From Escherichia phage A4: 64,000 nt of DNA. Of this stretch, positions 1 through 63,078 are shown in pieces (position 1 is the first letter of the stretch; each line of letters begins with the position of its first letter). The notes under the pieces were generated by a model. The model did not search any database, was not told where the DNA came from, and saw only the letters and a list, made by a program, of their open reading frames with translations. A program made the translations under genes and the position numbers. Location: the sequence record ON286972; one strand, written 5' to 3'.

Positions 1-1
1 G

Positions 2-100
2 TCACTTGTTGTAGATTTCCGTTCAGTAACTTATGACCATATCAAACTAATCAATGAAATGGTTGATATCGTCGCTAAGTTCGAAGAAGAAACCGCATAA
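2..100 (+). CDS. hypothetical protein, 3' fragment (gene starts upstream of window)
   Basis: Frame open from window edge to TAA at 98-100 (...MVDIVAKFEEETA*). Confidence 0.35.
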   Translation, partial: SLVVDFRSVTYDHIKLINEMVDIVAKFEEETA

Positions 101-113
101 TATAAAAAGAAAT

Positions 114-142
114 AAGGCTCTCAATCGGGAGCCTTATATTCA
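114..142 (+). terminator. putative intrinsic terminator
   Basis: AAGGCTC / GAGCCTT 7-bp stem with 8-nt loop, weak T-rich tail. Confidence 0.35.
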
Positions 143-177
143 TTTGTTAAATAAGACAAAGTAAAGGAGTACTTAAT

Positions 178-729
178 ATGATCGAACAAATTCAAAAATT
201 CACGAACCAAATTGTAAATTTCCTAGCAGATAAAGAAGGATTCAGCACTGAAGTTACACATCACGGTGTTAACCTTAACGTTACTGCACCAAGCGGTGAT
301 GTAACGTCATATGACATGTATGAGTTGTTGCTTTATACAATGGCAGTACGCAAAATAGGTTCTGATATAGAGCTAAACATCAATACTGATGACAAAGGGA
401 ACAATATTTTTGCTATTAATACTGATGCTAAACTTGATGTAATTGCAGAAATTCAAAAAATTAACGAGTCATTTATTAATTTCCAACATGATACGATACA
501 ATCCGTTTTTATTGGTCATCAAACATCTGAAAGTGTTTGCCCTTTTTGTGTAATGACTCTCTATAAGAATGGTAATTGGATGCGTCATGATTTGGCTAAA
601 GCTGAAGTTCTTTATGCCATTACACATGGTATGAAACTTGAACTAGATGACAGTGCTTTTGTCTTTAAGAAACTAAGAAAATTAACACTAGATGTTCAGA
701 CGAAATTAAAAGAGCTTAATGATAAATAA
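178..729 (+). CDS. hypothetical protein (183 aa)
   Basis: ORF-track ORF; AAAGGAG RBS 7-13 nt upstream of ATG. Confidence 0.6.
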   Translation: MIEQIQKFTNQIVNFLADKEGFSTEVTHHGVNLNVTAPSGDVTSYDMYELLLYTMAVRKIGSDIELNINTDDKGNNIFAINTDAKLDVIAEIQKINESFINFQHDTIQSVFIGHQTSESVCPFCVMTLYKNGNWMRHDLAKAEVLYAITHGMKLELDDSAFVFKKLRKLTLDVQTKLKELNDK

Positions 730-840
730 TTATGCCAGTAATGGCTAACATATTATTATGTTATTTTTCCTCCCTTCTATAATAAAATTAATTTATTATA
801 TTTTCCATTTCTTATTGTACATTTTATATCTTTTCGTACT

Positions 841-863
841 GCCCCTCCCAGGGGCATTTTTTA
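841..863 (+). terminator. intrinsic terminator
   Basis: GCCCCT-CCC-AGGGGC hairpin followed by TTTTTT. Confidence 0.55.
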
Positions 864-877
864 TATTAGGATAAAGT

Positions 878-1273
878 ATGTTAGGTAGTAGAATAGGCAG
901 CATCGTCACAATTAAACTTTCTTATTATCTAAATGATTTTTCAAAGATCGATTTATCAAAATATCAGCAATCATCATTCTATTATGAATCATCTGAGCAT
1001 GAATTTTCTATCAGCAAAGAAACTGTAAAACTAAAGTATCAGGGGTTTGCAGAAAAGAATGAATTCGTGTATGATTATGGTATGGACAAAATTGTATTCA
1101 CTGAATATACTAAGGGTACAAGACCTACATGGAAAGCGGATTATCATAGAAAATCATTCATCAATATACATAAGTATCTTGACGAAGAGCATTACTTTCA
1201 ACAGTTGCTTTTGGAGGATTTACCATTCACTATTGATGATCTAAAAACATTATTTAAGTACTATGCGATATAG
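878..1273 (+). CDS. FQ-motif paralog family protein
   Basis: ORF track; C-terminal DEEHYFQQLL motif; RBS AGGAT upstream. Confidence 0.55.
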   Translation: MLGSRIGSIVTIKLSYYLNDFSKIDLSKYQQSSFYYESSEHEFSISKETVKLKYQGFAEKNEFVYDYGMDKIVFTEYTKGTRPTWKADYHRKSFINIHKYLDEEHYFQQLLLEDLPFTIDDLKTLFKYYAI

Positions 1274-1290
1274 TACTAAAGGAGATACAT

Positions 1291-1725
1291 ATGAATATAT
1301 CATTCAAAAAAGTACTAAAATATTTCCAAAATAATAAACTTAAAGATATGAAAGTACGTGTCAATTTCTTTGCTAAAAGTGTGTGGTTTTGTACAGAGGA
1401 TGAAATTAAGGTTAATGTAAGATTAACTGATTCATATGAAATAATTCGCCTGTACACAACCATTGATGGCGTGGATACCAAAATATCATACATTTCAACG
1501 AGTGGTACGTTGATCATGAGTACGCGAGAAAATGAAACTGACACATTCAATGAAATTAAGATAGAAAACGTCCATGAAATCACATCTGAAGAGATACTAT
1601 TTCAACGTTCACTTGTTGACAATGTACTAGATTTAACATATGATAATATCATACTAATTCACAAACTACATGATGAGGCAAAAGCGTTTGCTCTAACCAA
1701 ATTCGGAGAATTGGATGATAAGTGA
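1291..1725 (+). CDS. FQ-motif paralog family protein
   Basis: ORF track; AAGGAG RBS; C-terminal SEEILFQRSL. Confidence 0.6.
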   Translation: MNISFKKVLKYFQNNKLKDMKVRVNFFAKSVWFCTEDEIKVNVRLTDSYEIIRLYTTIDGVDTKISYISTSGTLIMSTRENETDTFNEIKIENVHEITSEEILFQRSLVDNVLDLTYDNIILIHKLHDEAKAFALTKFGELDDK

Positions 1726-2140
1726 CCTGTTGAATATTGATATCACTAAACTAAAAATTACCGATTGTGGTATGTGTGTCAATGATAAACGTAAGATTGA
1801 TTATGCTATACTTACTGATGGCAATAAATCTCTTTGGTATGATAAATCTGTAGGAATTCAATTTAGACATAGTTCTAGTATTGAAAAGTATTCAGAGACA
1901 TTAGATTACATAAGTAATGGTAGTATTATCTATGTAAAATATTCAGAATCTGGAAAAATTACAAATACCATTACATTCAATGAAAAGAAGTACTCTGAAG
2001 AAGAATTCTTTATGGTTAGTACTTTGTATGATTTTGGGTGTATCAGGTACTGTGATTATGTTAAAACATTGGACATTTCCAATAAGATCTATTCAATACT
2101 TGAGCAATATGAAAAGGAGATTGTAGATGACAGTAAGTAA
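1715..2140 (+). CDS. hypothetical protein, degenerate FQ-family member
   Basis: ORF track; SEEEFFMVSTL near C-terminus; 11-nt overlap with upstream gene. Confidence 0.5.
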   Translation: MISDLLNIDITKLKITDCGMCVNDKRKIDYAILTDGNKSLWYDKSVGIQFRHSSSIEKYSETLDYISNGSIIYVKYSESGKITNTITFNEKKYSEEEFFMVSTLYDFGCIRYCDYVKTLDISNKIYSILEQYEKEIVDDSK

Positions 2141-2537
2141 ATGTTACATTATCATTCGTGAAGACTTAGATATGCCAGTTGGGAAGCTTGCTGCTCAGGC
2201 GGGTCATGCGGTTGATTCTATCTGGTCCACGATTACAGTTGCTGGTACATCAATTCGTGGTTGTAATGCTGTTGGTGAGAACCCAAGAGATGAAGATGAA
2301 AAGATCCTGAACGATTTCAGTACTTGGGTACAGGACGGTCGCCGCAAGATTATCTTAAAGGCTAAATCTGAAGAACAGATGCTTAATCTATTCGATAAAG
2401 TGAAAGCTGAAGGATTCACTGCAACTAAGATTCATGATTATGGATTCAACCATTTTGATGGTCTAACATTAACTGGATTCGTTGTGTTCCCGTGCACTGA
2501 CGAAGTTAAAGCATTGAAAAGGGTAAGATTATGGTAG
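2127..2537 (+). CDS. peptidyl-tRNA hydrolase, PTH2-like
   Basis: N-terminal CYIIIREDLDMPVGKLAAQAGHA recalls the PTH2 signature (vvRtDLkMgkGKiaAQcaHA); about 136 aa. Confidence 0.55.
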   Translation: MTVSKCYIIIREDLDMPVGKLAAQAGHAVDSIWSTITVAGTSIRGCNAVGENPRDEDEKILNDFSTWVQDGRRKIILKAKSEEQMLNLFDKVKAEGFTATKIHDYGFNHFDGLTLTGFVVFPCTDEVKALKRVRLW

Positions 2538-2911
2538 ATGAATTGGATAGAAAAATTGATGCTTTGTATAAATCAATTGAAACCAATGAGGTTACTGTAT
2601 ATTATGGGAGACAGAGTGTACAACAATCAAATTCATGTTTACGTTTAACCATAACCTTAGATTCAAGAGATAATCCATATACTTGTGTTTTCAAAGAAAG
2701 AAACACCATTGAATGGATTGGTTGGTATATAGATGACCGTCTTTCATACCTTTATGATTTTGAAAATTATGATAGTTCAGAAGTTTACTTGAATTCATCT
2801 GAAGAAGAATTATTTCAACTATCATTAATTGAAAAACATGTAATGTCATATGACAATTTACAAAAAATCAAGTCAATAATGAATTATGCTCTATCTAAGG
2901 TAAAGCAATGA
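2531..2911 (+). CDS. FQ-motif paralog family protein
   Basis: ORF track; SEEELFQLSL motif. Confidence 0.55.
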   Translation: MVDELDRKIDALYKSIETNEVTVYYGRQSVQQSNSCLRLTITLDSRDNPYTCVFKERNTIEWIGWYIDDRLSYLYDFENYDSSEVYLNSSEEELFQLSLIEKHVMSYDNLQKIKSIMNYALSKVKQ

Positions 2912-3348
2912 ACATTAAATTAGTTAAAAAATATATCAGTACTTTTAATAAAATTAAATTTATCAACGATGGTTTGACTGATCCTGAAGAACAAATTAAA
3001 AATACCACATACGTAGGTCAGAATTGCTTTAAGATTATTATTGAAAATAATGTATTATCATTATCAGTTAATAATCTGGTATATGGTGATCAGATGTATA
3101 TCGTGCACAATGTTAATAACAATAACTTAGAAATTATGCTTCGTGATGATAATATTATCAAAATATATCAGGTACAAAATGTAAGTGAATGCACTACTGA
3201 AGAGGGGTATTTCCAGGAATCACTGGTTCAAACATTTAATATTGATTTTAAGGATTTGAAATATCTCATGAACACACTAACAAAAATGCGTTCAGCTATC
3301 TTTAACATCTTTTTTATTGATGAACAGCGACAAATGGATGTAAAATGA
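2908..3348 (+). CDS. FQ-motif paralog family protein
   Basis: ORF track; TEEGYFQESL motif; ATGA start-stop overlap. Confidence 0.55.
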   Translation: MNIKLVKKYISTFNKIKFINDGLTDPEEQIKNTTYVGQNCFKIIIENNVLSLSVNNLVYGDQMYIVHNVNNNNLEIMLRDDNIIKIYQVQNVSECTTEEGYFQESLVQTFNIDFKDLKYLMNTLTKMRSAIFNIFFIDEQRQMDVK

Positions 3349-3767
3349 ACCCAAGAGATTGTTTTGATTTGTTAAAGGGAATGCCTATAGATTCACTAGT
3401 ACCTGATAATAGGTTTGAGCACAATCTTGATTTTCATGGTGAAAATTACAATGTATATATAAGCTACAGTGATGATGAGAGTGAAGAACTAACATTTGTG
3501 TTCATTTATAATGTTTTTGAAGGTGATAAGTTGTTGGATGTTGAAATTGCATCATATACTGTCACAAATCAATACGTTATCGAAGATGAACTTCGCAACA
3601 AATTTGATATAACACTGTACAGTACTGAAGAAGAGTTGTTTCAGTTAAGTACTATCAGTGATGTGTGCACAACTGTCGAAGAGTTAGCAGACGTTAAGAA
3701 AATTATTGACACTGTGTACAACAAGATATACAATACATTCCATATCGAGAAACAATTGAAAGGGTAA
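3345..3767 (+). CDS. FQ-motif paralog family protein
   Basis: ORF track; TEEELFQLST motif. Confidence 0.55.
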   Translation: MNPRDCFDLLKGMPIDSLVPDNRFEHNLDFHGENYNVYISYSDDESEELTFVFIYNVFEGDKLLDVEIASYTVTNQYVIEDELRNKFDITLYSTEEELFQLSTISDVCTTVEELADVKKIIDTVYNKIYNTFHIEKQLKG

Positions 3768-3771
3768 CACA

Positions 3772-4032
3772 GTGACTACAGTAGTTCGTAAACGCCACAT
3801 GATGAACATGGATGAATTCCGTACATTTGACAAATATCGCACTATGTTTCGTATGCTGACACAGGGGCGACCAATTGTCATTGTAACAGAAAATTACATG
3901 TCACCGGAAATCATGTTTGGTAATTATGAAAAGGTTTTCATGTTGTATGTGAAGCGTGGATTATTAACTATCAAGACCTTAGCAGAAGCAACTGATGAAG
4001 ACATGGATGGTGATAACACATTCACTATGTGA
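3772..4032 (+). CDS. hypothetical protein (GTG start)
   Basis: ORF track; start codon is GTG. Confidence 0.4.
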   Translation: MTTVVRKRHMMNMDEFRTFDKYRTMFRMLTQGRPIVIVTENYMSPEIMFGNYEKVFMLYVKRGLLTIKTLAEATDEDMDGDNTFTM

Positions 4033-4108
4033 GGAACTATGAGCGAAAAACCAAAAGAACCATTAGACCGTGATGATGATTACTACGACGAACGTTATGG
4101 TGATAAAG

Positions 4109-4360
4109 ATGAGTGAACATAGTGCAGTACTAAAAAAGATTTTAAATGATATGGGTAGTGAATTTGAAGTTTCAGACGAAGAATATGAATTTTGGAAAAA
4201 GGATTTTGAACAACTGTCCGAGAGTGATAAAGTGTTCAATATGATTGGTGTGGTCAGTCAGTACATATTAGGCGGTGGTCGTGCTAGTGCTTCAATCCTT
4301 GCATCGGCAATCATCTGTACTGCCCGATGGTGTCAAGAAAAAAGTATTGACGATTTCTAA
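4109..4360 (+). CDS. hypothetical protein (83 aa)
   Basis: Same frame as track ORF 4070..4360; first ATG at 4109 (MSEHSAVL...), overlapping the stop of a 25-aa upstream micro-ORF at 4039..4116. Confidence 0.45.
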   Translation: MSEHSAVLKKILNDMGSEFEVSDEEYEFWKKDFEQLSESDKVFNMIGVVSQYILGGGRASASILASAIICTARWCQEKSIDDF

Positions 4361-4418
4361 ATTAGGAGATATAATGTTTGTATCAGAGAGAAAGAATGTA
4401 TAAGGAATTATATTTTGC

Positions 4419-4447
4419 TTGACAATGGAGCAATAATATTATACAAT
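4419..4447 (+). promoter_or_regulatory. sigma70-type promoter
   Basis: TTGACA-N17-TACAAT. Confidence 0.5.
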
Positions 4448-4646
4448 TAATCAATCTTATACAACGAGGAAACTCCAATTGAAATATGTAATGATCCTTA
4501 TCCCAGTGGGGTCATTCCATGAAATTCTACCTACTGATGTACTGGATGGTCTTAAAAAGAGAAATCCACATAAGTTTTAAATAGTATTAAAAAGGACAAT
4601 ACTGGGCGAATATTCGTCCAGTATTTTATTTTATAAAGGATTATAG

Positions 4647-6545
4647 ATGGAACCGATACGTGTACTATCACTATTCAATGGGATGAGTGTTGGGTATATG
4701 GCCTTGCAAAGTGCAGGAATACCAGTTGAAAAGTACTACTCATCTGAAATTGATAAATTTGCTATAGCTGAATCCCAGGCTAACTTTCCTGATATCATCC
4801 AATTGGGTGATGTAACTAGATGGAAAGAATGGGATATCGAATGGGACAAGATAGATCTTCTGATGGGTGGTTTTCCTTGCTTCCCAGCAGGAACCATGAT
4901 CATGACAAATGAAGGTCATAAAGATATAAAAGATATAAAAATTGGTGATATGGTTCTTACACACACTGGACAATACCAAAAAGTATTGAGTATTGGTAGC
5001 AAGATTGCACCAACAAGAATCATCACAGGTCAGGGACATATACCAATTGAATGCACTGATAATCATCCATTTTATGCGAGAAAAATGAGCAAGAAGTGGG
5101 ATAATGAAAAACGACAATATGTTCGTGAATATACAGAACCTACATGGATCGATGCACATGAACTCACAGAAGAACATGCTATATGTAATGTTCGTTGTAA
5201 TGTGAATTTTCAACATAACAAGAGTGAAAGCTTTTGGTATTTCATGGGTAGATTTATGGGTGATGGATGGACTTACAAAGTAAAACGACAAAATAGAAAA
5301 AATAGTTATCAATATCGTGTTTTTATTTGCTGTGCTCATGATGAATTTGATGAATTGGTTTCATGTTTTGATGGTATGAATATGAAATATAATTTTGTTA
5401 AAGAAAGAACATCTTATAAATTCTATATTTGTTCAAAAGAACTAGTTGAATTTTGTGAACAAATGGGTAAGGGTGCTTCAAATAAACAAGTACACCCCAC
5501 ACTTTTCACTGAAAGTATCGCTAATCAGAAAGCATTCATTGATGGTTATTTTGACGCAGATGGTCACCATGACAAGAAAGATGATTGTTTAAAATTTACA
5601 TCAACATCAAAGAATGTTATTCTTGGTATACAACAACTAATTATGAATGTGTATGGTCGTCATTCTAACATAACATACTTTAAACCGTCTGAAACAAAAG
5701 TTATAGAAGAACGTGTTGTTAATCAGAAGCCGTATTACGTATTAACATACAAAAAAGAAAAGCACCGAAAAGATGAAGCATTCTATGATGATGGGTCATA
5801 TTCATGGGTAAAAGGTGTTAAATCGAACACCACAACCGGAGAATGGAAAACCGTTTACAATATTGAAGTTGCAGTAGATAACACATATACGGCGAACAAT
5901 ATTGTAGTTCATAACTGCCAAGCGTGGTCAGTTGCTGGGAAACAAGGCGGTGTGAATGATCCTCGTGGTATGTTATTCCATACAATGGTTGATATTTACC
6001 AGCACATAAAAAGTCTCAATCCTAACTTGAAAGTTCTTTTTGAGAATGTTAAGATGAAGGAAGATTTCAAGGATTATATCAATGGCGTGTTGGAAATGAC
6101 ACCAATTTTGATAAATTCACAAAATTATACAGCACATTATCGCCAACGTTACTACTGGTATAGCTCGGATAAGTTGTTTATTCCAAAACCTCTTATTTTA
6201 GCACCAAAATTACAAGATATACTAACTGGTAATTGGTATACTGATCGTGATAAATCATATTGCATTGACGCAAACTACTTCAAGGGTGGAGATCCGAATC
6301 AGTACTTCAATAAGTCAAGAAGACAAATCGTTTTCAAAGACCCTGATATCAACAGGAACTTCCTGATTGAGAAGGGTAAACGAAATGTGGACTATCGTCA
6401 TTTAACAGTACAAGAGTGTTGCATGTTGCAAGGAATTGATGTAAACTACTTCAAAGTTAGTAGTTCAACACAAGCGTACAAAATGCTTGGTAATGGCTGG
6501 ACAGCACCTGTTATAGAACATTTACTACGTGATATATTCTTTTAA
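4647..6545 (+). CDS. DNA (cytosine-5) methyltransferase, intein-containing precursor
   Basis: Motif I LSLFNGMSVGY, GGFP|C...intein...HN|CQAWS (motif IV PCQ restored after splicing), ENV motif VI, QRYYW, GNGWT. Confidence 0.85.
   Translation: MEPIRVLSLFNGMSVGYMALQSAGIPVEKYYSSEIDKFAIAESQANFPDIIQLGDVTRWKEWDIEWDKIDLLMGGFPCFPAGTMIMTNEGHKDIKDIKIGDMVLTHTGQYQKVLSIGSKIAPTRIITGQGHIPIECTDNHPFYARKMSKKWDNEKRQYVREYTEPTWIDAHELTEEHAICNVRCNVNFQHNKSESFWYFMGRFMGDGWTYKVKRQNRKNSYQYRVFICCAHDEFDELVSCFDGMNMKYNFVKERTSYKFYICSKELVEFCEQMGKGASNKQVHPTLFTESIANQKAFIDGYFDADGHHDKKDDCLKFTSTSKNVILGIQQLIMNVYGRHSNITYFKPSETKVIEERVVNQKPYYVLTYKKEKHRKDEAFYDDGSYSWVKGVKSNTTTGEWKTVYNIEVAVDNTYTANNIVVHNCQAWSVAGKQGGVNDPRGMLFHTMVDIYQHIKSLNPNLKVLFENVKMKEDFKDYINGVLEMTPILINSQNYTAHYRQRYYWYSSDKLFIPKPLILAPKLQDILTGNWYTDRDKSYCIDANYFKGGDPNQYFNKSRRQIVFKDPDINRNFLIEKGKRNVDYRHLTVQECCMLQGIDVNYFKVSSSTQAYKMLGNGWTAPVIEHLLRDIFF
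4878..5915 (+). mobile_element. intein with LAGLIDADG homing-endonuclease domain (346 aa)
   Basis: Begins CFPAGTMIMT (Cys at 4878), two LAGLIDADG-like blocks (FMGRFMGDGW, FIDGYFDADGH), ends IVVHN at 5915 followed by Cys. Confidence 0.8.
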
Positions 6546-6560
6546 CCATCAGAGGCACAA

Positions 6561-7933
<1,373 letters not shown>

Positions 7934-7949
<16 letters not shown>

Positions 7950-8389
7950 CAGTACTGCACCAATTAAAGAAAGTTAAACATCCGGTAGTTTATAATGATT
8001 GGCTACGCCAGAAGGAGATGGGGGACTTTTACTACCCAAAGTCTAAAGTACTGGCAACGTCAAAAACTATATACCTGAAATATAACGATGAAGATTGTTT
8101 GTGTATTCAAATGGGATTCCATCCTAAAGTTGGATTGTTTACATCAAATCAAACATTTTATAAATTTAGAATTCAAAAAGATACATTTAGTATTCACATT
8201 GAAAAGCATGACGTAGAAGATACAATATATCGTGTGGAAAGTGAGCCTTTGAATCTTGTTGGGATTCCGTACAATAATTTAGAAGAAATGTACTTTCAGC
8301 AGTTGACAATACAAGAAGACTTTGGTATGATAGGACTTCAAGAGTTAGAGATGATTAAACAAATTCGTGATATCTACTTTAAGGAGTAA
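7934..8389 (+). CDS. FQ-motif paralog family protein
   Basis: ORF track; LEEMYFQQLT motif. Confidence 0.55.
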
Positions 8390-8391
8390 TT

Positions 8392-8535
8392 ATGCCAGTG
8401 CGTAACAGTACATCACGCTTTACACTTCAACAGAAAGCAGATCTTCTGAATATGGCTAATAAAGATTCTAATTTTTACTATCTAGTACTTGGTGGTTCAG
8501 TTGAAAAGATTGATCTACGCGAGTGTATGAAATAA
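8392..8535 (+). CDS. small hypothetical protein (47 aa)
   Basis: Not in track (under 60 aa); AAGGAG RBS 6 nt upstream of ATG 8392. Confidence 0.35.
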   Translation: MPVRNSTSRFTLQQKADLLNMANKDSNFYYLVLGGSVEKIDLRECMK

Positions 8536-8547
8536 TAAGGGGACAAA

Positions 8548-8718
8548 ATGAGTCTGAGTGAATCCTGGAAACAGTTCAAAGAAGAGATTGGTTATCGTGG
8601 TGTATCGAGTGAACCAATCAATCGTACTGAAAGCATTAAGGCCAGTACTAACGGTACTACCTATGACCGATATGACCCACGTTACGGGTTACATGAAGAA
8701 GTCAAAAAAGAAGATTGA
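8548..8718 (+). CDS. small hypothetical protein (56 aa)
   Basis: ATG 8548 after AGGGGA RBS; competes with track ORF 8558..8758 in another frame. Confidence 0.35.
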   Translation: MSLSESWKQFKEEIGYRGVSSEPINRTESIKASTNGTTYDRYDPRYGLHEEVKKED

Positions 8719-8781
8719 CAATATATCGAGAGTGTGTGATAATACTCTCGTCTTTTAATTAAACAAAAAGGTAAAATAAAA

Positions 8782-9348
8782 ATGGCTGGATGTGAAAAGA
8801 TTTGTGAATACAGTGATGAATATGTTGGACATGAAATGTATCACCATAAACGCAATCATATTCAAGTACTATCTAAGCACAGAAAACATTTCCGTGGTAA
8901 AGAGGCAACTCTTTTTGTTTTTGAAAATGGTTTGAAAGAAGTTTGGAAATCAGGTGGTCAATCCGACGCATCATTGGAATGTGTGAATCCCAATCCAACA
9001 GAAGAGAATTGGGATAATTATGAATACTTCCGCATGTTTAAACGTACACCGTGGGGTAAATCCGAATGCTATGCTGTGTTTTTTGAAAACCTCGATGAAT
9101 ACAAAGCTGCACTGAAACAGTTCCAGCAACGACTGGTAATGGAATATGCATATTACCTGTACGTACCAGATGTACCAGGTAAAGTCGGTGGTATGTATCT
9201 TAACTTCTCAACTGATCTGAGTGCAGTTAAGCGTCGTTTGCGTCGTCTGGTAGGAACACGCAATCTTAAAATCAAATACATGAAAGGTGATTTCTGCGAT
9301 TTCTATAATGAACAGAAATTGATTAGAATCGGTTCAGAGGACATGTAA
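8782..9348 (+). CDS. hypothetical protein (188 aa)
   Basis: ORF track; AAAGG RBS-like upstream. Confidence 0.55.
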   Translation: MAGCEKICEYSDEYVGHEMYHHKRNHIQVLSKHRKHFRGKEATLFVFENGLKEVWKSGGQSDASLECVNPNPTEENWDNYEYFRMFKRTPWGKSECYAVFFENLDEYKAALKQFQQRLVMEYAYYLYVPDVPGKVGGMYLNFSTDLSAVKRRLRRLVGTRNLKIKYMKGDFCDFYNEQKLIRIGSEDM

Positions 9349-9602
9349 TGGAACATCTTAAAACTATATGGGAACAAGTGAAAATCATCGTTGAAGGTGT
9401 TGTATTCGCTCTTATGACCTTAATCACAATTGTAGTTGCTTTGATTCCATCCATCATTTATCAATATAATGGTGGAACTAACACTGATATTGACTTAGCA
9501 TTGCGTATATTAGGTTTTGTGATTTGGTTACTATTTGTTGTTTGGGTGATGAACCGCAAAAGTCCATATGAGCAAGATGAGAAATCGGATAATGAGTATT
9601 GA
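9348..9602 (+). CDS. small membrane protein
   Basis: ORF track; two hydrophobic helices (VVFALMTLITIVVALIPSII, ILGFVIWLLFVVWVM). Confidence 0.5.
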   Translation: MEHLKTIWEQVKIIVEGVVFALMTLITIVVALIPSIIYQYNGGTNTDIDLALRILGFVIWLLFVVWVMNRKSPYEQDEKSDNEY

Positions 9603-10386
9603 AAAGATATTAAAAGATAACTTAACAAAGTACTTGATGAATTGCGACCGTGATGTACGCCGTAAATTTAACGGGTACTTAAAACGTTATCCTTACATCA
9701 TGTTTTGTCCTATTAAAATTAATAACGAGGAAGAACACGATTGTCTTCACATTGGATTCACAAATCGTGTACTGAAAAAAAGTGAATTGTCTGAATCGGA
9801 CGTATGGATTGAAACAGATGCACATGAGACTAATGTTTTCTATCTGTATACTCCATATGCAGAGATTGTACATAACATATGTGATGCTGTATTCATTAGT
9901 ACTGATGAGTTTCCAAAACTTTATATAAAGCCAGCACCACTTAAAGTTGCTATCAATGCACCATCTGTCGGGGAGGATGTATTTGGTACAATACAGTACT
10001 GTGTAGAAGAACATTTGGATCGTGAGATTTCAATTGAAATGGCAGACATGCTTGCTGATGCTGTATCTGAATGTACGGCCCTTGAAAGTTACCTTATATA
10101 TGATAAATCGTATTATAATTTGAATAACATTGTTGAAGGTGAAATCACAGTATGTATCAAATACAACAGTGAAGTTATTGGGTTTGTTCATTGTAAAGGG
10201 CATGATTTGTACCGTAAAAACATATCAGTGGTTGATCTACAGAAATGGAATCAGGTGATGGATTTAATCATTGACAACAGCGGTGTAAATGATATACTCG
10301 TTAAACAATATAGAGTAATCAACCCTAAAGATGACTGTGATTTGTACTTCCCAGTACAAGGTGTAACTGACGAGGATAAGCGATGA
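9568..10386 (+). CDS. hypothetical protein (start uncertain, possibly ATG 9592)
   Basis: ORF track; overlaps upstream gene, alternative in-frame ATGs at 9577 and 9592. Confidence 0.5.
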   Translation: MSKMRNRIMSIEKILKDNLTKYLMNCDRDVRRKFNGYLKRYPYIMFCPIKINNEEEHDCLHIGFTNRVLKKSELSESDVWIETDAHETNVFYLYTPYAEIVHNICDAVFISTDEFPKLYIKPAPLKVAINAPSVGEDVFGTIQYCVEEHLDREISIEMADMLADAVSECTALESYLIYDKSYYNLNNIVEGEITVCIKYNSEVIGFVHCKGHDLYRKNISVVDLQKWNQVMDLIIDNSGVNDILVKQYRVINPKDDCDLYFPVQGVTDEDKR

Positions 10387-10646
10387 AAATTTTAGAATAC
10401 GTATATGGCAGTGAACATCAAAGCACTCTTTATGTTGGTAATGAATTCAGTCCAGACCCTCTGGATATGTTACAACGCATTCAAGGGTTGAAGAAAGATA
10501 TCAGTACTAAGGAACCGTTTGTTAAGCGTGTTGACGTTCAATCACGCAATCCAGAAGAATATATTACCACAGATGCTGATATTAAAAAACTTCTTGCAAA
10601 GAATGGTTATGTTGAGTATAATCCTCACATCGTCAATCTTCAATAA
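10383..10646 (+). CDS. hypothetical protein (87 aa)
   Basis: ORF track; ATGA overlap with upstream gene. Confidence 0.5.
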   Translation: MKILEYVYGSEHQSTLYVGNEFSPDPLDMLQRIQGLKKDISTKEPFVKRVDVQSRNPEEYITTDADIKKLLAKNGYVEYNPHIVNLQ

Positions 10647-10656
10647 GGGAAAGCGA

Positions 10657-10932
10657 ATGACCGAATCAACAGAAGTACTGAAAGAACGCCTATCTAAACT
10701 CCGTGAAGAACGCCGCATTGTTCGTCTGGATTGGGATATTCTTAACCGCAAGGATGAACAATCCTATGCCAACTGGAGTTCAGATAAAGTTCGTAACGAA
10801 CGTTCTAAAGAAGATGCTAAACAATTTTCAGCACTGTCCAAGCGTCTATCATGTCTGAATAGTGAGATTACTGGAATTCAAAAAGAAATCACTGAGCGTT
10901 TACTATCTGAACTGAGATCAATGTATGAATAA
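10657..10932 (+). CDS. hypothetical coiled-coil protein (91 aa)
   Basis: Track ORF 10519..10932 trimmed to ATG 10657 with AAGGGA RBS; charged heptad-like sequence. Confidence 0.5.
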   Translation: MTESTEVLKERLSKLREERRIVRLDWDILNRKDEQSYANWSSDKVRNERSKEDAKQFSALSKRLSCLNSEITGIQKEITERLLSELRSMYE

Positions 10933-11221
10933 ACATGAAGTTCTAGTTTTTGATAATAAGTTCTATGTACCAACATGTGGAAGTACTGAATCATATTATC
11001 TAATTAATAATATCATGTCAGCAACCCAAACGTGTTGCCGTCAACGTCCAGGTGAGTACGAGTTCAGCCAGACTATCGGGTATTACCGTTATACTGAGTT
11101 GGAAAGTTTCACAATTGATTCTAAAAAAGTTATTGACGTTCTTATCAGTAACGGTTACAATGAACAAGAATCAAATAACACTGATTTACCTGTAGTTGAG
11201 ATTGTTCTAAAAAATTCTTAA
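10925..11221 (+). CDS. hypothetical protein (98 aa)
   Basis: ORF track. Confidence 0.5.
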   Translation: MNKHEVLVFDNKFYVPTCGSTESYYLINNIMSATQTCCRQRPGEYEFSQTIGYYRYTELESFTIDSKKVIDVLISNGYNEQESNNTDLPVVEIVLKNS

Positions 11222-11340
11222 GAAGTTGTGGAACAATTTCGAATCCAATGATATAATGTTTTCATCGGCAGATGTTAAAATGCAAATCACTTCCTCAATG
11301 ATTGAGGGTTCTATAAAAAAGAAATAAAAGGGTATTAACA

Positions 11341-11550
11341 ATGGCACAAGAAATTAAAGCACAAGTACTAGACGTAACTGATTTTGACCGCACTGTAAAC
11401 TACATTCAGTTCCAAATTCACCAAGCGGAAGAAGCACTTGCTCAATTCCACGGTACTGGTGCTAAGCCAATCATGTTCGCTCATCTCATCACTTGGAAGA
11501 AAAATCTCCAAGAAGAACTACACGAACTGCGTAAAGCAAATCGTAAGTAA
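11341..11550 (+). CDS. hypothetical protein (69 aa)
   Basis: ORF track; AAAGGG RBS. Confidence 0.5.
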   Translation: MAQEIKAQVLDVTDFDRTVNYIQFQIHQAEEALAQFHGTGAKPIMFAHLITWKKNLQEELHELRKANRK

Positions 11551-11561
11551 TTAGGGTTTAT

Positions 11562-11589
11562 GCCCTGTCCATATGGATGGGGCTTTTTA
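11562..11589 (+). terminator. intrinsic terminator
   Basis: GCCCTGTCCATATGGATGGGGC hairpin then TTTTT. Confidence 0.5.
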
Positions 11590-11615
11590 ATCAAAAGTAT
11601 AGAGGAAAAAAGAAA

Positions 11616-12155
11616 ATGGGTGTAGAATATTATTTTTTATTTGGATGCCTTAGTGTTCTGGTGTTGATAACAGTAGGATTAATTATTAATACATGCATAA
11701 GTGGTTCTAAATATTTTCGTTCTTTCCAGTTTCTTATGTCAGCTATGTCATATAATAAAGAAGCTGATACAGCCATTAATCTATTACTAGATAAGACTGA
11801 AGCTGGAATACTTATTGCGAAATTATCACCATCTGATGACACGATTATGTTTGTCAATCCAAACGATGAAGAAACAACACTTGTAGCAAATCAATATCGC
11901 ACTAGTCATGCAGATCCACGTTATGTTAAAGTTCTTAATTCAGAAGGTGAAATCTGGATTGGTTCTAAATACTATGCTTATGGATACATCCATCGTTACT
12001 ACGGTCAACGAAAGGAAGAATTTTATAAGAAACGTCCAAGTTTAAATACATTTAAACGTATTCTAAAACTTGAACACGAGTTAAAGAAACCAAGTTCAGA
12101 AAACGCAGCACCAAATCATGTGCATAAGCGTGATAGTGATATCGTGGAGTTATAA
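11616..12155 (+). CDS. membrane-anchored hypothetical protein (179 aa)
   Basis: Track ORF 11577..12155 trimmed to ATG 11616 after AGAGGA RBS; N-terminal TM helix. Confidence 0.5.
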   Translation: MGVEYYFLFGCLSVLVLITVGLIINTCISGSKYFRSFQFLMSAMSYNKEADTAINLLLDKTEAGILIAKLSPSDDTIMFVNPNDEETTLVANQYRTSHADPRYVKVLNSEGEIWIGSKYYAYGYIHRYYGQRKEEFYKKRPSLNTFKRILKLEHELKKPSSENAAPNHVHKRDSDIVEL

Positions 12156-15709: not shown

Positions 15710-16199
<490 letters not shown>

Positions 16200-16216
16200 T
16201 AATTAAAGGTTAAACC

Positions 16217-16595
<379 letters not shown>

Positions 16596-16596
16596 C

Positions 16597-17611
<1,015 letters not shown>

Positions 17612-17614
17612 TTC

Positions 17615-17770
<156 letters not shown>

Positions 17771-17798
17771 CAAAACGAAATGATAATAGGAAATTAAA

Positions 17799-17984
17799 AT
17801 GCAACTTTTAATTCTTTCAATATTGTATATTATTATAATGGTTCCTATATCAATACGTTTAATTATACTTGAACGATTTTTATCGAAACATGGAAATAGA
17901 TCTATGATATTTGTACCAATCGGGCTTATATTGTTTGGTATATTTGCATTTATAATGGGAATTAACGCTACATTCATTTCATAG
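17799..17984 (+). CDS. small membrane protein (61 aa)
   Basis: ORF track; two hydrophobic helices. Confidence 0.45.
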   Translation: MQLLILSILYIIIMVPISIRLIILERFLSKHGNRSMIFVPIGLILFGIFAFIMGINATFIS

Positions 17985-17993
17985 GAAACAAAT

Positions 17994-18475
<482 letters not shown>

Positions 18476-18482
18476 AAGAACG

Positions 18483-18515
<33 letters not shown>

Positions 18516-18516
18516 C

Positions 18517-18572
<56 letters not shown>

Positions 18573-18573
18573 T

Positions 18574-18780
<207 letters not shown>

Positions 18781-18874
18781 GGTTCAAGAAGAAAACTGGG
18801 GTTTTTAACCTAACGAGGTCAATATGAAAGTAAGTAAAGAAACAGCTAAACAGATTGAAGAACTCTGCACTGCT

Positions 18875-18913
<39 letters not shown>

Positions 18914-18914
18914 A

Positions 18915-18966
<52 letters not shown>

Positions 18967-18967
18967 A

Positions 18968-19098
<131 letters not shown>

Positions 19099-31936: not shown

Positions 31937-32899
31937 GTGAAGAAACTAGACTTAAACGCAATTTCCGAAGAAGTACTGGATGAATGTTTTGCGAATGAAG
32001 AAGTCAATCCATTGGAAGCAATTGAACCATCAGAAGTTATTGAAGATGATATTCCACATAAAGTTCGTAGTAAAAGTAACATTAGTCTCAAGCGTCCAGT
32101 AGGTGTGACTAATGAATCCATCATCGAAGAGATTCGTGCTGGAATTAATGTAAAAAAGAACACTGACCTATTACTTCGTTATAACTATGGTATGATCGTT
32201 GATGTTGCTTCAAAGTGTACATGTTATATTCCGTTTGAAGATAAAATTGCATATGGTGTAGAAGGTTTTATGCGAGCACTTAAAACCTTTGATCTTAGTA
32301 AGAATGTCAAATTCATTACATATGCAACAACGTCCGTTTATATGACTATGTATAATGAAAGTTCAGATGCAAATTACATGGTGTACTTACCACGTTATAT
32401 GAGCGTTCATAACATCCAAGTACGTCGATTTAATGAATCATATCAACGTGAACACGGTAAGCGACCTACACCAGAATTAATCTCTGAGAGTACTGGTATC
32501 GAGCTTCAGCACGTTAAGAACTGTTTGTTATACCAGAATGCATATACGACTCTTGATGCACAACTGGGTTCAGATTCAGACGGAACCCTTGGGGATATTC
32601 TGAGTTCATCTGCTCGTGATTATAACCTTAATGTTGATAGCATTTGTAATCCATTACGTTATGCAATCACAGAAATCATTGACGAATTGAGTACTAAAGA
32701 ACGAGAAATTATCATGCGTGTTCATGGTCTTGGGGATTACAAAGCAGAAACCCTTCGTGAAATTTCTGATAATGGATATGTTGATGATAAAGGAAACATT
32801 GTTAAGTCCCGTTCATCTGTGCACCGAAAATATAGTGAAGCTATTCAAAAGCTTAAAAAAATAGTACTTGAAAAAGGGTACGAATACGAAGATTTCTAA
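31937..32899 (+). CDS. phage-encoded sigma70-family RNA polymerase sigma factor
   Basis: GTG start after AGGAG; region-2-like LLLRYNYGMIVDVA...FMRALKTFD...KFITYATTSVYM and region-4-like LSTKEREIIMRVHGL...TLREIS...SRSSVHRKYSEAIQKLKK. Confidence 0.75.
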   Translation: MKKLDLNAISEEVLDECFANEEVNPLEAIEPSEVIEDDIPHKVRSKSNISLKRPVGVTNESIIEEIRAGINVKKNTDLLLRYNYGMIVDVASKCTCYIPFEDKIAYGVEGFMRALKTFDLSKNVKFITYATTSVYMTMYNESSDANYMVYLPRYMSVHNIQVRRFNESYQREHGKRPTPELISESTGIELQHVKNCLLYQNAYTTLDAQLGSDSDGTLGDILSSSARDYNLNVDSICNPLRYAITEIIDELSTKEREIIMRVHGLGDYKAETLREISDNGYVDDKGNIVKSRSSVHRKYSEAIQKLKKIVLEKGYEYEDF

Positions 32900-54715: not shown

Positions 54716-54745
54716 AAAAAAGCCCACATTAAGTGGGCTTTTTGT
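54716..54745. terminator. bidirectional intrinsic terminator between convergent gene blocks
   Basis: AGCCCAC-ATTAA-GTGGGCT hairpin flanked by AAAAA and TTTTGTT. Confidence 0.6.
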
Positions 54746-56769
54746 TATTTGTGTTTTATGTGTAAAGTGTCTAATATTGTATTGAACAATGATTTAGCAG
54801 AAATCATGATTACTTGATCAAAATCTTTAGTATAAGAAATATTAGCAGTACTGGAAGAATCTTTCACCTCATCCGGTAATGCATCAAACTCTTCTTTTTC
54901 CATAATCTTTTCAAGTTCTTCACGAGAAATGGCTTTTACGTTTTCAATAGTCCTTAGTTGTATATTATAATCTTTATAATACGAAACTAAGTTCGTTGCG
55001 TATGAACCATCTTTAGATGCTGTTCCAGTAAAATCATAACATCCTGTATCAGTACTAACCCAATCGATTTTCCCTGAACTACCACTATATACACCTTTGT
55101 TGAACTTAATGTTAACAACATCACCAATAGTTTTCAATATACCACCTTTACATTCATTAAATGCGTTTAATTGATAACTTGTAGTCATATAGAATTTCGG
55201 TTCTAATGTAACAGTATCACCTACAGTTGCTTTCATATCAGAAACACTTAAGAACAATTCATTAAATCCTTTTGAATAAGTCTTGGTAATTGTTGTTCCA
55301 TCCCTGTTAGTTACTGTGTATTCTAAGTCCAATTCACAAATACTATTCAATGATAAGTAAGGGATATCAAATTTATCAGTACTAGCATCATAAGGACATC
55401 TTGAGGATGGTAGTATACCAGTAGGGTTTGGTACGTATTGAACTTTTGTTAACTCATACCCGCTTGCATTCGCTGGTGTAACTGTAATAGACGGTGTAGA
55501 TATTCCTTTCATTCCACAGAAGTATATGTTATCTGGAAAATCATTTATTACGAAGTCAGTGACAGGAATATCATAAGTATCTTTATCAGTCCAATTAAGA
55601 ACAACATTAGAACTGGTTGGATCAACAATATGTTCACTAGAACCACAGAAATATACTGATTTGGTATTAGTAATCATTAGTAATGTTTTGGATGATGAGT
55701 TCAATTCAAGAACATCTTTCACTTCAAGACCAGATGGTAATGTCAATGGTAACTTCGTAAATGATGTTAAATCTTGTTCATCTTTAACACCACTAGTCCC
55801 CGCCGGAAACTTACCTGAACCATAGAAAACACCTTTATTCGTCATGAAATACATGAACGGGGTTGATGTTCCTTTGTCAAATAGTTGAATGTCATCACAT
55901 GTTAAACCATCAGGTAAATCCACTTTAGATGGAGTTCTATAAACACCAGGCTTAATACCACCTTCACCATTACTTACATCACCTAGTACATATAAATCTT
56001 TACCTAGTTTCAAGAACATTGATTTATTTTTAGCACACAAGAATGTATCATATGATTTATCATCAATTGGTAGCTTGGTATATTCGGTGTATGTAGGCAT
56101 TGAATCATCAATCCACGAACTATCACCACTAATGTAAATGTGATTGTTTCTGTCAATATAATATGAATACACATCAGTACTGTTCATATATAAAGCATTT
56201 AGTGCATTTGTTTTCACTAAGTGATTGAACTTAAGAACTTGTTTTCCATCGTACTTATGGGAGTTGACACCAATATCACCATTTAGGCTACTACCAATTG
56301 AATATATATGACCACGTGGTAATAGAACTTGAACACCACTTTTGGTTAAATTATATTTGGAGTGCAAGAGATCGTTATATACAACTCTAACTTTCTTAAA
56401 GATATCAGTACATTCAATCCACGATTTAGATGGTGTACCATCCATTCCTATTATTGCCGGATCACCATAATAATAAGCTTTATTTTCATATGATATTTTA
56501 AAAGATGATTTACCATCTTTTGTATTAGCACTGAAGTACACATCTTTACTATCTTTAATTGGATAAGTACTATTCTCTACAAAAGTATTATATGAGATAT
56601 CGTTGTTAGCACTATTAAGAACAAAAGAAGTAGATGTACTATTGGACTTATAGACTGCTACGGAAGATGTATCACTGAAATCAATTTTAGTGAACGTATC
56701 TTTGTATGTTTCGTTTAATAATCCTACATAAAAAACATCAGTGCCATCCATCAGTAACGAATATAGCAT
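54745..56769 (-). CDS. RCC1-like repeat protein, possibly the C-terminal part of a frameshifted gene continuing from 56738..57682
   Basis: ORF track; no RBS before its ATG; frame opens 29 nt upstream of the stop of the preceding minus-strand ORF. Confidence 0.55.
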   Translation of the reverse strand: MLYSLLMDGTDVFYVGLLNETYKDTFTKIDFSDTSSVAVYKSNSTSTSFVLNSANNDISYNTFVENSTYPIKDSKDVYFSANTKDGKSSFKISYENKAYYYGDPAIIGMDGTPSKSWIECTDIFKKVRVVYNDLLHSKYNLTKSGVQVLLPRGHIYSIGSSLNGDIGVNSHKYDGKQVLKFNHLVKTNALNALYMNSTDVYSYYIDRNNHIYISGDSSWIDDSMPTYTEYTKLPIDDKSYDTFLCAKNKSMFLKLGKDLYVLGDVSNGEGGIKPGVYRTPSKVDLPDGLTCDDIQLFDKGTSTPFMYFMTNKGVFYGSGKFPAGTSGVKDEQDLTSFTKLPLTLPSGLEVKDVLELNSSSKTLLMITNTKSVYFCGSSEHIVDPTSSNVVLNWTDKDTYDIPVTDFVINDFPDNIYFCGMKGISTPSITVTPANASGYELTKVQYVPNPTGILPSSRCPYDASTDKFDIPYLSLNSICELDLEYTVTNRDGTTITKTYSKGFNELFLSVSDMKATVGDTVTLEPKFYMTTSYQLNAFNECKGGILKTIGDVVNIKFNKGVYSGSSGKIDWVSTDTGCYDFTGTASKDGSYATNLVSYYKDYNIQLRTIENVKAISREELEKIMEKEEFDALPDEVKDSSSTANISYTKDFDQVIMISAKSLFNTILDTLHIKHK

Positions 56770-57682
56770 TTCTATTATTACATAAAGAAGTAATATTTTT
56801 TACTACTTTATTTGAATTATAGTTTGGTAACTTCTTTAATCCACGAACAAAATTATCACAAATAATACCAGTACCATAGAAGTTATAATCTTTATCACAG
56901 TATATAAATGCTGTATCATATGGTGAAGTACTTAAATTCTTATAGAATGGGAATGGAGTGAATGTGAATTGTAGAACCTTACGCAATTCCCCTACTGTCT
57001 CTGTTGGGAATTGTCTGTTTTTATTATTACCAATAAAAACAACTCTATCTGTTAGGAATGTGTACATAATTCCATATGGTTTTACGTACAAATCATTATA
57101 TCCCAATGATAATTTAGTTGGTGATGTTAGTGGTCCTGAGTTTATTTTGGTTTGATTAATTGAAAACTCATTAGAATTATAACCAGCCCCATATGTATTA
57201 CCATTAGTACTTAAATAATATACAGTAGCTTCCCCTGCTCCAAGAAAAGTCTTTACATCAGTTGCTAACGTTTTTTGGAAAGTTGGATAAAATTTATTAT
57301 ATGTTCCCGTTCCCATCATCAGTTCACCATTGCGGTTATGACCACGAGCATATAGAATACCTTTGTCTGTATCTAAGAAGAACATACCATTATATGTTTT
57401 GTAAATCTTACCTTTTGTAATATCGAAATTGGAAAAATCATCACTAATATCAATGAATATTGTCTCAAGATTATCTTCAAGGGAGTTTAGAGATTTACCA
57501 CAATACCATACTGAGTTATCTTTTTTAACAGCAACACAACCACACGGACTGGCATCAAAATATGTTACATCGGAAAGAACCAGAGATAAGTTCTTTGTAC
57601 TGCAATAGTTATCCATTGCATATAAATCGGAATCTTTAAGTATATATACGGAATTCCCAACCGCTTTAATCGAATTTATCAT
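56738..57682 (-). CDS. RCC1-like repeat protein (N-terminal part or separate gene)
   Basis: Track ORF 56738..57772 trimmed to ATG 57682 (MINSIK...) after GAGGA RBS; G.N..GELMMGTG-type repeats. Confidence 0.55.
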   Translation of the reverse strand: MINSIKAVGNSVYILKDSDLYAMDNYCSTKNLSLVLSDVTYFDASPCGCVAVKKDNSVWYCGKSLNSLEDNLETIFIDISDDFSNFDITKGKIYKTYNGMFFLDTDKGILYARGHNRNGELMMGTGTYNKFYPTFQKTLATDVKTFLGAGEATVYYLSTNGNTYGAGYNSNEFSINQTKINSGPLTSPTKLSLGYNDLYVKPYGIMYTFLTDRVVFIGNNKNRQFPTETVGELRKVLQFTFTPFPFYKNLSTSPYDTAFIYCDKDYNFYGTGIICDNFVRGLKKLPNYNSNKVVKNITSLCNNRNAIFVTDGWH

Positions 57683-57901
57683 GTTTATATCCTCATAAAT
57701 TGATACCAATTCTAATGTATTTACCCACTTAAAGTACAAAAAATGATCAATTAAATGGGGAATCTTTAACAAATGAATTCATGATGTACTTGATGAATTG
57801 CCCATACCAACGGATTCCTCAGTCCCAGCATACCACATGGTATTATCGAACTTTTTATCATTGTAGTATCATAACCACACCAAACATCATCAACATTAGT
57901 A

Positions 57902-59254
57902 TTACAACAATTGTATTTCTGTGAGTGTTTGATATGTTGTACCGTTGTACACACCTCTCCAATATACCCTACCTTCAGTACTAACCACTAATAATCCATA
58001 TGTTGTAAACCCAAGAGTACCACCAACATACATAGCATCTTTAATTCGAATACCAATGTCTTCATATGTAAATGAAGCGACTGCTCCCGCTTGCCACGAA
58101 GGACTAGCGTAGTAATCACTATAAACACCATGTGCTTTATATATTGATGTTGTTCCTGGTTCAAAAATTACAGTTCCACAGTAGTTCATTCGTATTTTAG
58201 TACTGGATGAAGTCGGTACATTTATACCTATGCCATCTTTTATCCCTGTAGTTAGGACGTTAAAACCACCCGCCACACGGTTGACGTCATTCTCACCGAT
58301 TAAAAACATACCAACGTTGTAGCCCATATAATATACACTGCTACTGCCATTCCAGAAAGAAAAACCACCACCATTACCACAGCGATATAGTTGTGAATTT
58401 GAGCAGTACATCATACCTTCGTTTGTCGCATCAAATTCATCTGCTGTTCCTATTGTAGCTACAGTAGTCCACGTTTTAATCACTTGGTTTGTACTAGCTG
58501 GTGTTTGTATACCATATCGTATATTATATCCCTTACCAACGATTGTACCATCTTCTAATTTAGCATAAAGTACAGGTCTATTACCAACAAAATACATATT
58601 ATTGTGTGACATGTCTATTGTGCATCTTAATGAAACTACTTTTTGTGTCAATTGATTATCTTTAGTAAAAGAAGTAAAGTAGTAATCCGATGTTGAGTTG
58701 TTTATTAAACCTTGTATTGACAATCCCATATACCAGATTTCACCATTGCTGTTTAATGCTGCCAAAATACAACTATATTTTGAAGTGTATGCTGGTGATG
58801 TTGTTGAAGTTGCTGGTCCTTTATCATATCCACCACAGAATACCATCTCCACAACTTCACCTACGTTCGAAAAATAAGAAGATACATTGATAAAACCATT
58901 TGTTATAAAAGGTGCTGTATTCATACTTGAATGTGTGAATATCCCATTTGCATATACACCACAAAAATGATATGAACCATCATTATCTTGGACTATTATT
59001 CCATTTGATAGTAACCAAAAATTGTTTACATTTTTTCTTACTAATTCAACTCCTGCACCATTGGTTGGTGTTATACCAAAAGAAACATATTTTGTTTGAC
59101 CAATACCATATAAATTTCCATTAGTTGCTAGTATTGCACCAAACCAGTTCCCACCACCATTCCTATCATGACCCATACCAATGGAGTCAAATTTCTTCAC
59201 AGTAGGGACTTCAACTTTATTCCCATACTCTAGCATTCTAACAAAAGGTAACAT
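57902..59254 (-). CDS. RCC1-like beta-propeller repeat protein (putative receptor-binding or tail-fibre-like), paralog E
   Basis: Track ORF 57902..59320 trimmed to ATG 59254 (MLPFVRMLEYGN) after AGGAGG; track N-extension reads through the terminator hairpin. Confidence 0.65.
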   Translation of the reverse strand: MLPFVRMLEYGNKVEVPTVKKFDSIGMGHDRNGGGNWFGAILATNGNLYGIGQTKYVSFGITPTNGAGVELVRKNVNNFWLLSNGIIVQDNDGSYHFCGVYANGIFTHSSMNTAPFITNGFINVSSYFSNVGEVVEMVFCGGYDKGPATSTTSPAYTSKYSCILAALNSNGEIWYMGLSIQGLINNSTSDYYFTSFTKDNQLTQKVVSLRCTIDMSHNNMYFVGNRPVLYAKLEDGTIVGKGYNIRYGIQTPASTNQVIKTWTTVATIGTADEFDATNEGMMYCSNSQLYRCGNGGGFSFWNGSSSVYYMGYNVGMFLIGENDVNRVAGGFNVLTTGIKDGIGINVPTSSSTKIRMNYCGTVIFEPGTTSIYKAHGVYSDYYASPSWQAGAVASFTYEDIGIRIKDAMYVGGTLGFTTYGLLVVSTEGRVYWRGVYNGTTYQTLTEIQLL

Positions 59255-59318
59255 ATATCCTCCTTTATTCATTATATTATATTTAATCAAAAAAGAAAAG
59301 CCAGTACAGAGTACTGGC
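59255..59318 (-). promoter_or_regulatory. repeated intergenic cassette: terminator hairpin, TATAAT box, AGGAGG RBS
   Basis: Minus-strand read: GCCAGTACTCTGTACTGGC, T-tract, GATTAAATATAATATAATGAATAAAGGAGG, ATG; near-identical at four sites. Confidence 0.5.
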
Positions 59319-59329
59319 ATTTAAAATAA

Positions 59330-60505: not shown

Positions 60506-60569
60506 AATTCCTCCTTTATTCATTATACTATATTTAATCAAAAAAGAAATGCCAGCATCAAGTACTGGC
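60506..60569 (-). promoter_or_regulatory. repeated intergenic cassette (terminator, TATAAT, RBS)
   Basis: Hairpin GCCAGTACTTGATGCTGGC, T-tract, TATAGTATAATGAATAAAGGAGG. Confidence 0.5.
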
Positions 60570-60576
60570 ATTATTG

Positions 60577-61832: not shown

Positions 61833-61838
61833 CTATAT

Positions 61839-63072: not shown

Positions 63073-63078
63073 ATTGTG

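Follow-up and report, generated by a model that had tools for sequence, protein, structure and literature searches.

The open reading frame (ORF) at 2127–2537 (+) of the 64-kb stretch of phage DNA analysed here (the window) is a real gene that, from the agreement of sequence comparisons with a structural model, codes for a protein of the archaeal/eukaryotic-type (PTH2) family of peptidyl-tRNA hydrolases. The protein is probably a catalytically competent hydrolase that functions in tRNA recycling during infection, an activity and a role that are both predicted from sequence and model. The source phage is an E. coli jumbo myovirus of the Rak2/PBECO4-like group, with a very AT-rich 358 kb genome and hundreds of short ORFs. 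Its PTH2 gene is already known, being a member of a known clade and correctly named in GenBank; the new details are a presence/absence contrast with PBECO4-type phages, together with the tRNA cluster that these phages share with the window phage.

The PTH2 gene

The PTH2 coding sequence starts with ATG and comprises 136 codons plus a stop; the N terminus of its translation reads MTVSKCYIIIREDLDMPVGKLAAQAGHA. A Shine–Dalgarno sequence, AAGGAG, is found at 2114–2119 (+), 7 nt upstream of the ATG. The gene overlaps both neighbours, with its start inside the end of ORF 1715–2140 on the upstream side and its stop inside the beginning of ORF 2531–2911 on the downstream side, a tight packing that is typical of phage operons. 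Two further ORFs, at 2179–2310 (+) and 2204–2419 (−), fall wholly within this conserved and well-supported coding sequence and were rejected as spurious. A profile hidden Markov model (HMM) of the family run against all six-frame ORFs of the 64-kb window matched 2127–2534 alone and found no second PTH2 copy.

At 40.6% GC (z = 2.0) the gene ranks second among the 79 ORFs of the window, compared with an ORF mean of 34.0% and flanks at 31–32%. Its GC3 is raised only mildly (z = 1.1), for which reason we reject a recent horizontal acquisition. The GC excess sits in codon positions 1–2, and is thus explained by the amino-acid composition of the protein.

Family assignment and fold

The original prediction of a phage-encoded PTH2-type peptidyl-tRNA hydrolase is borne out by the Pfam search, the fold and the presence of the catalytic Lys and Asp, which all agree. 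The Pfam PTH2 profile (PF01981), which had been proposed as the check on that prediction, scores 66.8 bits on the protein (gathering score 23; E = 2.5e-18), with an alignment that takes in 2–103 of its 115 positions, and the unnamed PHROG 1866 matches residues 3–136 (E = 8.5e-30). A sequence search of the PDB matched seven PTH2 chains, the best of them from M. jannaschii (2zv3, E = 3.4e-13). Neither the Pfam nor the PDB resemblance can be a matter of chance at such E values. The protein does not reach the cutoffs of the NCBIfam equivalog models of archaeal Pth2, NF003314 and TIGR00283 (64.9 versus 126 bits and 63 versus 82 bits), indicating that it belongs to a divergent phage subfamily and is no orthologue-level counterpart of the archaeal enzyme. 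Pth1 (PF01195) gave no match in the Pfam and NCBIfam scans at E values up to 10, and by sequence the ORF is not a bacterial Pth1.

An AlphaFold2 model of the protein, computed from ten homologues, has a pLDDT of 90.6 and a pTM of 0.84. Its secondary-structure elements follow the order E-H-H-E-H-E-E, and the model has the alpha/beta architecture of the PTH2 fold, in which a four-stranded sheet is packed by helices. All 14 significant matches in a Foldseek search of the PDB are PTH2 structures (probability 1.0), and the next match has E > 0.5. Target-normalised TM scores are 0.72–0.85 for the PTH2 crystal structures and 0.47 for an NMR model (1rzw). Archaeal Pth2 from M. jannaschii (2zv3), S. 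solfataricus (1xty) and P. horikoshii (1wn2), as well as human PTRH2/Bit1 (1q7s), share the fold at target-normalised TM scores of 0.75–0.85.

These archaeal and human enzymes have in common with the phage protein the motifs R.D.x.M..GK..AQ..H and D.G....T.T and the catalytic Lys and Asp, although overall identity is only 20–28%. The phage protein has GRRK where the archaeal and human enzymes have GQxK, and towards its C terminus it has KR..W where the archaeal proteins have G..KLL. E. coli Pth1 has the same expected reaction and the same expected substrates (peptidyl-tRNA and N-acetyl-aminoacyl-tRNA) as the phage protein. It nevertheless differs from PTH2 in having an unrelated fold, with His20, Asp93 and Asn10 as catalytic residues, and the two families have no sequence similarity (PMC3488237).

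The closest named counterparts are in the genus Alcyoneusvirus, where RaK2 ORF188 and K64-1 gp231 are 59% identical to the window protein over 98% of its length. K64-1 gp231 is annotated as a peptidyl-tRNA hydrolase, and the same orthologue is present in RaK2. The K64-1 gene order is also the same as that of the window: gp231 follows a homologue of ORF 1715–2140, and a DNA methyltransferase is encoded a few genes further downstream. The full-length match to PHROG 1866 and this shared genomic position place the window protein in a Rak2-like jumbo-phage PTH2 clade. RaK2 and K64-1 are nonetheless phages of another genus that infect another host genus, and 41% of residues differ. Only three clusters at 50% identity score above 119 bits among 1.84 billion representative sequences, which shows the clade to be compact. 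A separate match in the representative library, a protein of 2694 amino acids (P0038), contains 13 distinct matches to the phage PTH2 profile, which could stem from repeats in the protein or be an artefact of low complexity.

Catalytic residues

The N-terminal PTH2 motif spans R11–H27 (REDLDMPVGKLAAQAGH; 2157–2207, +) and includes K20, as placed by alignment with 1xty, 1rlk and 2zv3. The original prediction had quoted the N terminus exactly and had likened it to the PTH2 signature; the resemblance holds, in that the motif carries the near-invariant family residues R..D.L.M..GK..AQ..H. The C-terminal catalytic motif, D104-Y-G-F-N108-H-F-D-G-L-T114-L-T116 (2436–2474, +), was placed by alignment with 1xty and the phage clade. 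In these alignments K20 corresponds to K18 of S. solfataricus Pth2 and D104 to D86, and N108 replaces T90; the S. solfataricus numbering was confirmed on the 1xty sequence. We take K18, D86 and T90 to be the residues picked out by mutagenesis of S. solfataricus Pth2, which reportedly identified all three.

We assessed conservation in 156 PTH2 sequences drawn from the search of 1.84 billion representatives. The putative catalytic pair is almost invariant, with K20 present in 155 and D104 in 154 of the 156 sequences. In the N-terminal motif H27 is found in 156, Q24 in 154, D13 in 153 and R11 in 152, and in the C-terminal motif T116 is found in 153 and T114 in 147. Together with W67 and K74, these residues form a set of ten positions that are each kept in 94–100% of the sample, and all ten are invariant across the ten-member phage PTH2 clade. 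Such conservation of the predicted active site down to 42% identity implies purifying selection.

Position 108 is more variable: of the 156 sequences, 134 have Thr and 19 have Asn. Asn is typical of the phage clade, as in RaK2 and K64-1 (cluster P0011), which have Asn at the position equivalent to Thr90; one clade member (P0003) has Thr. Asn108 is thus, from these alignments, a conservative and recurrent minority variant, with which family membership stands.

The helix-1/helix-2 hairpin

Between the two catalytic motifs the phage protein has an extended hairpin of helices 1 and 2 (residues 28–66; 2208–2324, +), defined from HMMER alignments, the AlphaFold model and composition. It is 39 residues long, about 16 more than the 23 of S. 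solfataricus Pth2 (1xty), and appears in HMMER alignments to 2zv3 as a gap of about 20 residues. The model places helices at residues 18–48 and 55–69 with pLDDT above 90. The RaK2/K64-1 orthologue has the same extended hairpin. PTH2 family members have between 13 and 59 residues here, and the length of the phage hairpin is therefore not exceptional. The hairpin is net acidic (seven D+E versus three K+R), and the protein as a whole is near-neutral (pI 6.3) where the S. solfataricus enzyme is basic (pI 8.8). This suggests that tRNA binding could differ from that of S. solfataricus Pth2.

Distribution of phage PTH2 proteins

Window positions 1–12000 are 99.47% identical to a contig of 357,761 bp (AATHYQ020000001.1) in E. 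coli assembly GCA_012813795.2. The PTH2 protein encoded on this contig (P0001) is 99% identical to that of the window, with one amino-acid and two nucleotide differences, and is named "aminoacyl-tRNA hydrolase [Escherichia coli]" by NCBI. From this sequence identity the contig is essentially the same phage as the window phage, and it looks like a complete jumbo-phage genome that has been filed under a bacterial assembly. The contig is missing from the INPHARED phage collection, and a megablast search of RefSeq complete E. coli genomes with window positions 1–6000 gave no match.

PTH2 homologues were identified by tblastn in 39 phage records. Rak2-like jumbo phages account for nearly all of these records, and many of the homologues bear the annotation peptidyl-tRNA hydrolase. 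The hosts include Klebsiella, Salmonella, Cronobacter, Erwinia, Serratia, Pectobacterium, Yersinia and Xanthomonas. A fold search extends the distribution to PTH2-fold proteins named peptidyl-tRNA hydrolase in many other phages, in giant viruses and in one poxvirus. In addition, matches in the BFVD structure collection reveal that RaK2 and some other large phages encode a second protein with the PTH2 fold that has diverged strongly (about 13% identity), represented by RaK2 H6X423 (107 amino acids), CBB A0A1L2CVE3 and RB43 K8DVW4.

Members of the family have been described before. The identification of RaK2 ORF188 as Pth2 dates from 2013 (PMC3622015) and the description of CBB_392 from 2017 (PMC5259590), and a 2021 review of jumbo phages by Iyer et al. 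noted the archaeo-eukaryotic-type PTH2 and proposed a role in ribosome rescue (PMC7824862). Virus-encoded PTH2 is thus on record for jumbo phages through these three publications, and also for other phages and for giant viruses, which leaves the present gene with little discovery value. Our literature search found neither an experimental study of any phage PTH2 nor a link between these proteins and anti-defence.

Presence and absence among related E. coli phages

PBECO4/121Q-type E. coli jumbo phages (Asteriusvirus) share parts of the window sequence at 80–90% identity. In PBECO4 (L005), the homologues of the ORFs that flank the PTH2 gene (4316–4720 and 4722–5099) are directly adjacent, without PTH2 between them. 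Neither tblastn nor the family profile HMM detects PTH2 in the 15 kb syntenic locus of PBECO4, and no PBECO4-type record is among the matches of a genome-wide tblastn search; the absence of PTH2 from PBECO4-type phages is accordingly defined by genome-wide tblastn at E <= 1e-5 and by the profile HMM over the 15 kb syntenic locus. The simplest reading of these comparisons is that an ancestral PTH2 gene of the Rak2 group has been kept in the window phage and lost in the PBECO4 lineage. Because close E. coli relatives have no such gene at the same position, PTH2 is an accessory gene, and a phage must be able to do without its function on some E. coli hosts at least.

The original prediction had also remarked that the phage carries its own tRNAs. 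It does: ARAGORN and Rfam (RF00005) identify six tRNA genes at 16019–19088 (+), namely Ser-TGA, Gly-TCC, Ser-GCT, Met-CAT, Asn-GTT and Thr-TGT. The distance between this cluster and PTH2 is about 14 kb. The further suggestion that these tRNAs hint at what PTH2 does fares less well, since the PBECO4-type phages keep a cluster that is about 91% identical and yet have no PTH2. We therefore reject a functional coupling of PTH2 to the tRNA cluster.

The window phage and its PBECO4-type relatives constitute a natural plus/minus pair for PTH2 in a tractable host. Such a pair could be used to ask whether a viral Pth supports translation capacity or counters tRNA-directed toxins.

Proposed function and alternatives

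We propose that the phage protein would act off the ribosome, where it would bind, as cellular Pth2 does, peptidyl-tRNAs and other N-blocked aminoacyl-tRNAs that have been dropped from stalled or aborted translation. The Lys20/Asp104 pair would promote hydrolysis of the ester bond to the 3′ adenosine, freeing a tRNA that can be used again. In the infected cell the phage enzyme would supplement the single essential Pth1 of the host, and the host and phage tRNA pools would stay available while the very AT-rich 358 kb genome is expressed. Archaeal and human Pth2 reportedly complement E. coli pth(ts) strains. Phage lambda is said to be unable to grow on pth(rap) hosts, with bar minigenes driving a drop-off and accumulation of peptidyl-tRNA that starves translation, from which it follows that Pth activity can limit phage growth. 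The breadth of viral PTH2 in sequence and fold searches, which reaches from phages with unrelated hosts to giant viruses and a poxvirus, favours a general role in translation maintenance.

The original prediction gave countering tRNA-targeting defences and rescuing stalled ribosomes as examples of what the protein might do; both are speculation, and had already been published for this gene family (PMC7824862). In one version, the same enzyme would have been selected for counter-defence, and would either reverse a chemical blocking of aminoacyl-tRNAs by the host or relieve a peptidyl-tRNA accumulation triggered by defence. For example, it might detoxify the N-acetyl-aminoacyl-tRNAs produced by host GNAT toxins of the TacT, AtaT and ItaT family, which would be released when infection shuts off antitoxin synthesis, and so prevent translational arrest or abortive infection. 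In its favour, TacT is less toxic to E. coli when host Pth1 is overexpressed, and the acetylation of aminoacyl-tRNAs is then undone (PMC4942678, PMC9241777); the presence or absence of PTH2 among close relatives and its small, fast-evolving ORF neighbours are typical of host-interaction or anti-defence loci. Were this reading correct, the distribution of PTH2 between the window phage and its PBECO4-type relatives would be expected to mirror differing host defence repertoires. We nonetheless regard a dedicated counter-defence enzyme as unlikely: the literature search found no report of GNAT tRNA-acetylating toxins restricting these phages, PADLOC finds no match and there is no defence-related neighbour, and the spread of PTH2 over jumbo phages of very different hosts and over eukaryotic giant viruses fits translation maintenance better. 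A role proposed explicitly for jumbo-phage PTH2, in the model of Iyer et al. 2021, is that together with phage tRNA repair it clears the peptidyl-tRNA fragments and jammed ribosomes left by host anticodon nucleases (PMC7824862). Rak2-like phages encode an RNA ligase, a polynucleotide kinase and a CCA-adding enzyme (PMC3622015), and the window phage has its six tRNA genes, but these genes are uncoupled from PTH2 in the PBECO4-type comparison and no RNA-repair gene was recognised among the scanned ORFs of the 64 kb window. Moreover, free peptidyl-tRNA, and not ribosome-bound tRNA, is the substrate of Pth enzymes. This explanation is, to our minds, still less probable than selection by toxins.

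It is also conceivable that the PTH2 fold has been retained here with an altered or lost esterase activity, for instance as a tRNA- or ribosome-binding modulator or as an enzyme acting on another acyl-ester substrate. The missed equivalog cutoffs, the N108 substitution of the majority Thr and the longer acidic hairpin with a protein pI of 6.3 all point in this direction, as does the second, divergent PTH2-fold protein of RaK2 and other phages, which shows that the fold diversifies in phages. However, the ten conserved positions are all kept, the Asn at 108 is a conservative change that recurs in the family and gives way to Thr in one clade member, and the hairpin lies within the family range of lengths. 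We consider a change of activity the least probable of the alternatives, and a competent PTH2 hydrolase engaged in tRNA recycling remains our preferred reading.

Genomic context

The PTH2 gene is flanked on both sides by six small ORFs of 126–146 amino acids (878–3767, +), all of which match PHROGs of unknown function. Their pairwise identity is 16–22%, and they have in common a C-terminal S/T-E-E-x-x-F-Q-x-S-L, in which E, E and F are invariant. The alignment indicates that they are a diverged paralogous family with a C-terminal EE..F motif. Both PBECO4 and K64-1 have homologues of these flanking ORFs, in an unchanged order. A PADLOC scan gave no match for PTH2 or its neighbours, and a Pfam scan of 20 larger ORFs of the window revealed no evident tRNA-repair or translation domain.

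Upstream of PTH2, a consensus scan finds a sigma-70-like promoter match, TTGACA-17-TATGAT, at 1616–1644 (+) that agrees with the consensus at 11 of 12 positions, in a window where such matches are not enriched (44 versus 41.3 expected from shuffled sequence). We tentatively suggest that this is an early promoter and that PTH2 belongs to an early transcription unit. The same type of scan locates terminator-like hairpins followed by T-runs at 840–856 (+) upstream and at 4598–4625 (+) downstream, which are the probable boundaries of the transcription unit containing PTH2.

Several other features of the window merit mention. A C5 cytosine DNA methyltransferase gene at 4647–6545 (+) is split by an intein, with Hint_2 and LAGLIDADG_3 domains between the two DNA_methylase halves; its orthologues in PBECO4 (861 nt) and K64-1 (894 nt) are too short to contain an intein. 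On the opposite strand, at least five consecutive genes at 54745–63170 (−) encode proteins of 344–674 amino acids with RCC1 repeats or RCC1-like beta-propellers, and this array looks like a paralogous expansion. Finally, the 320-amino-acid protein encoded at 31937–32899 (+) combines the domains Sigma-70 region 2 and Sigma-70 region 3, which points to a sigma-like factor of the phage.
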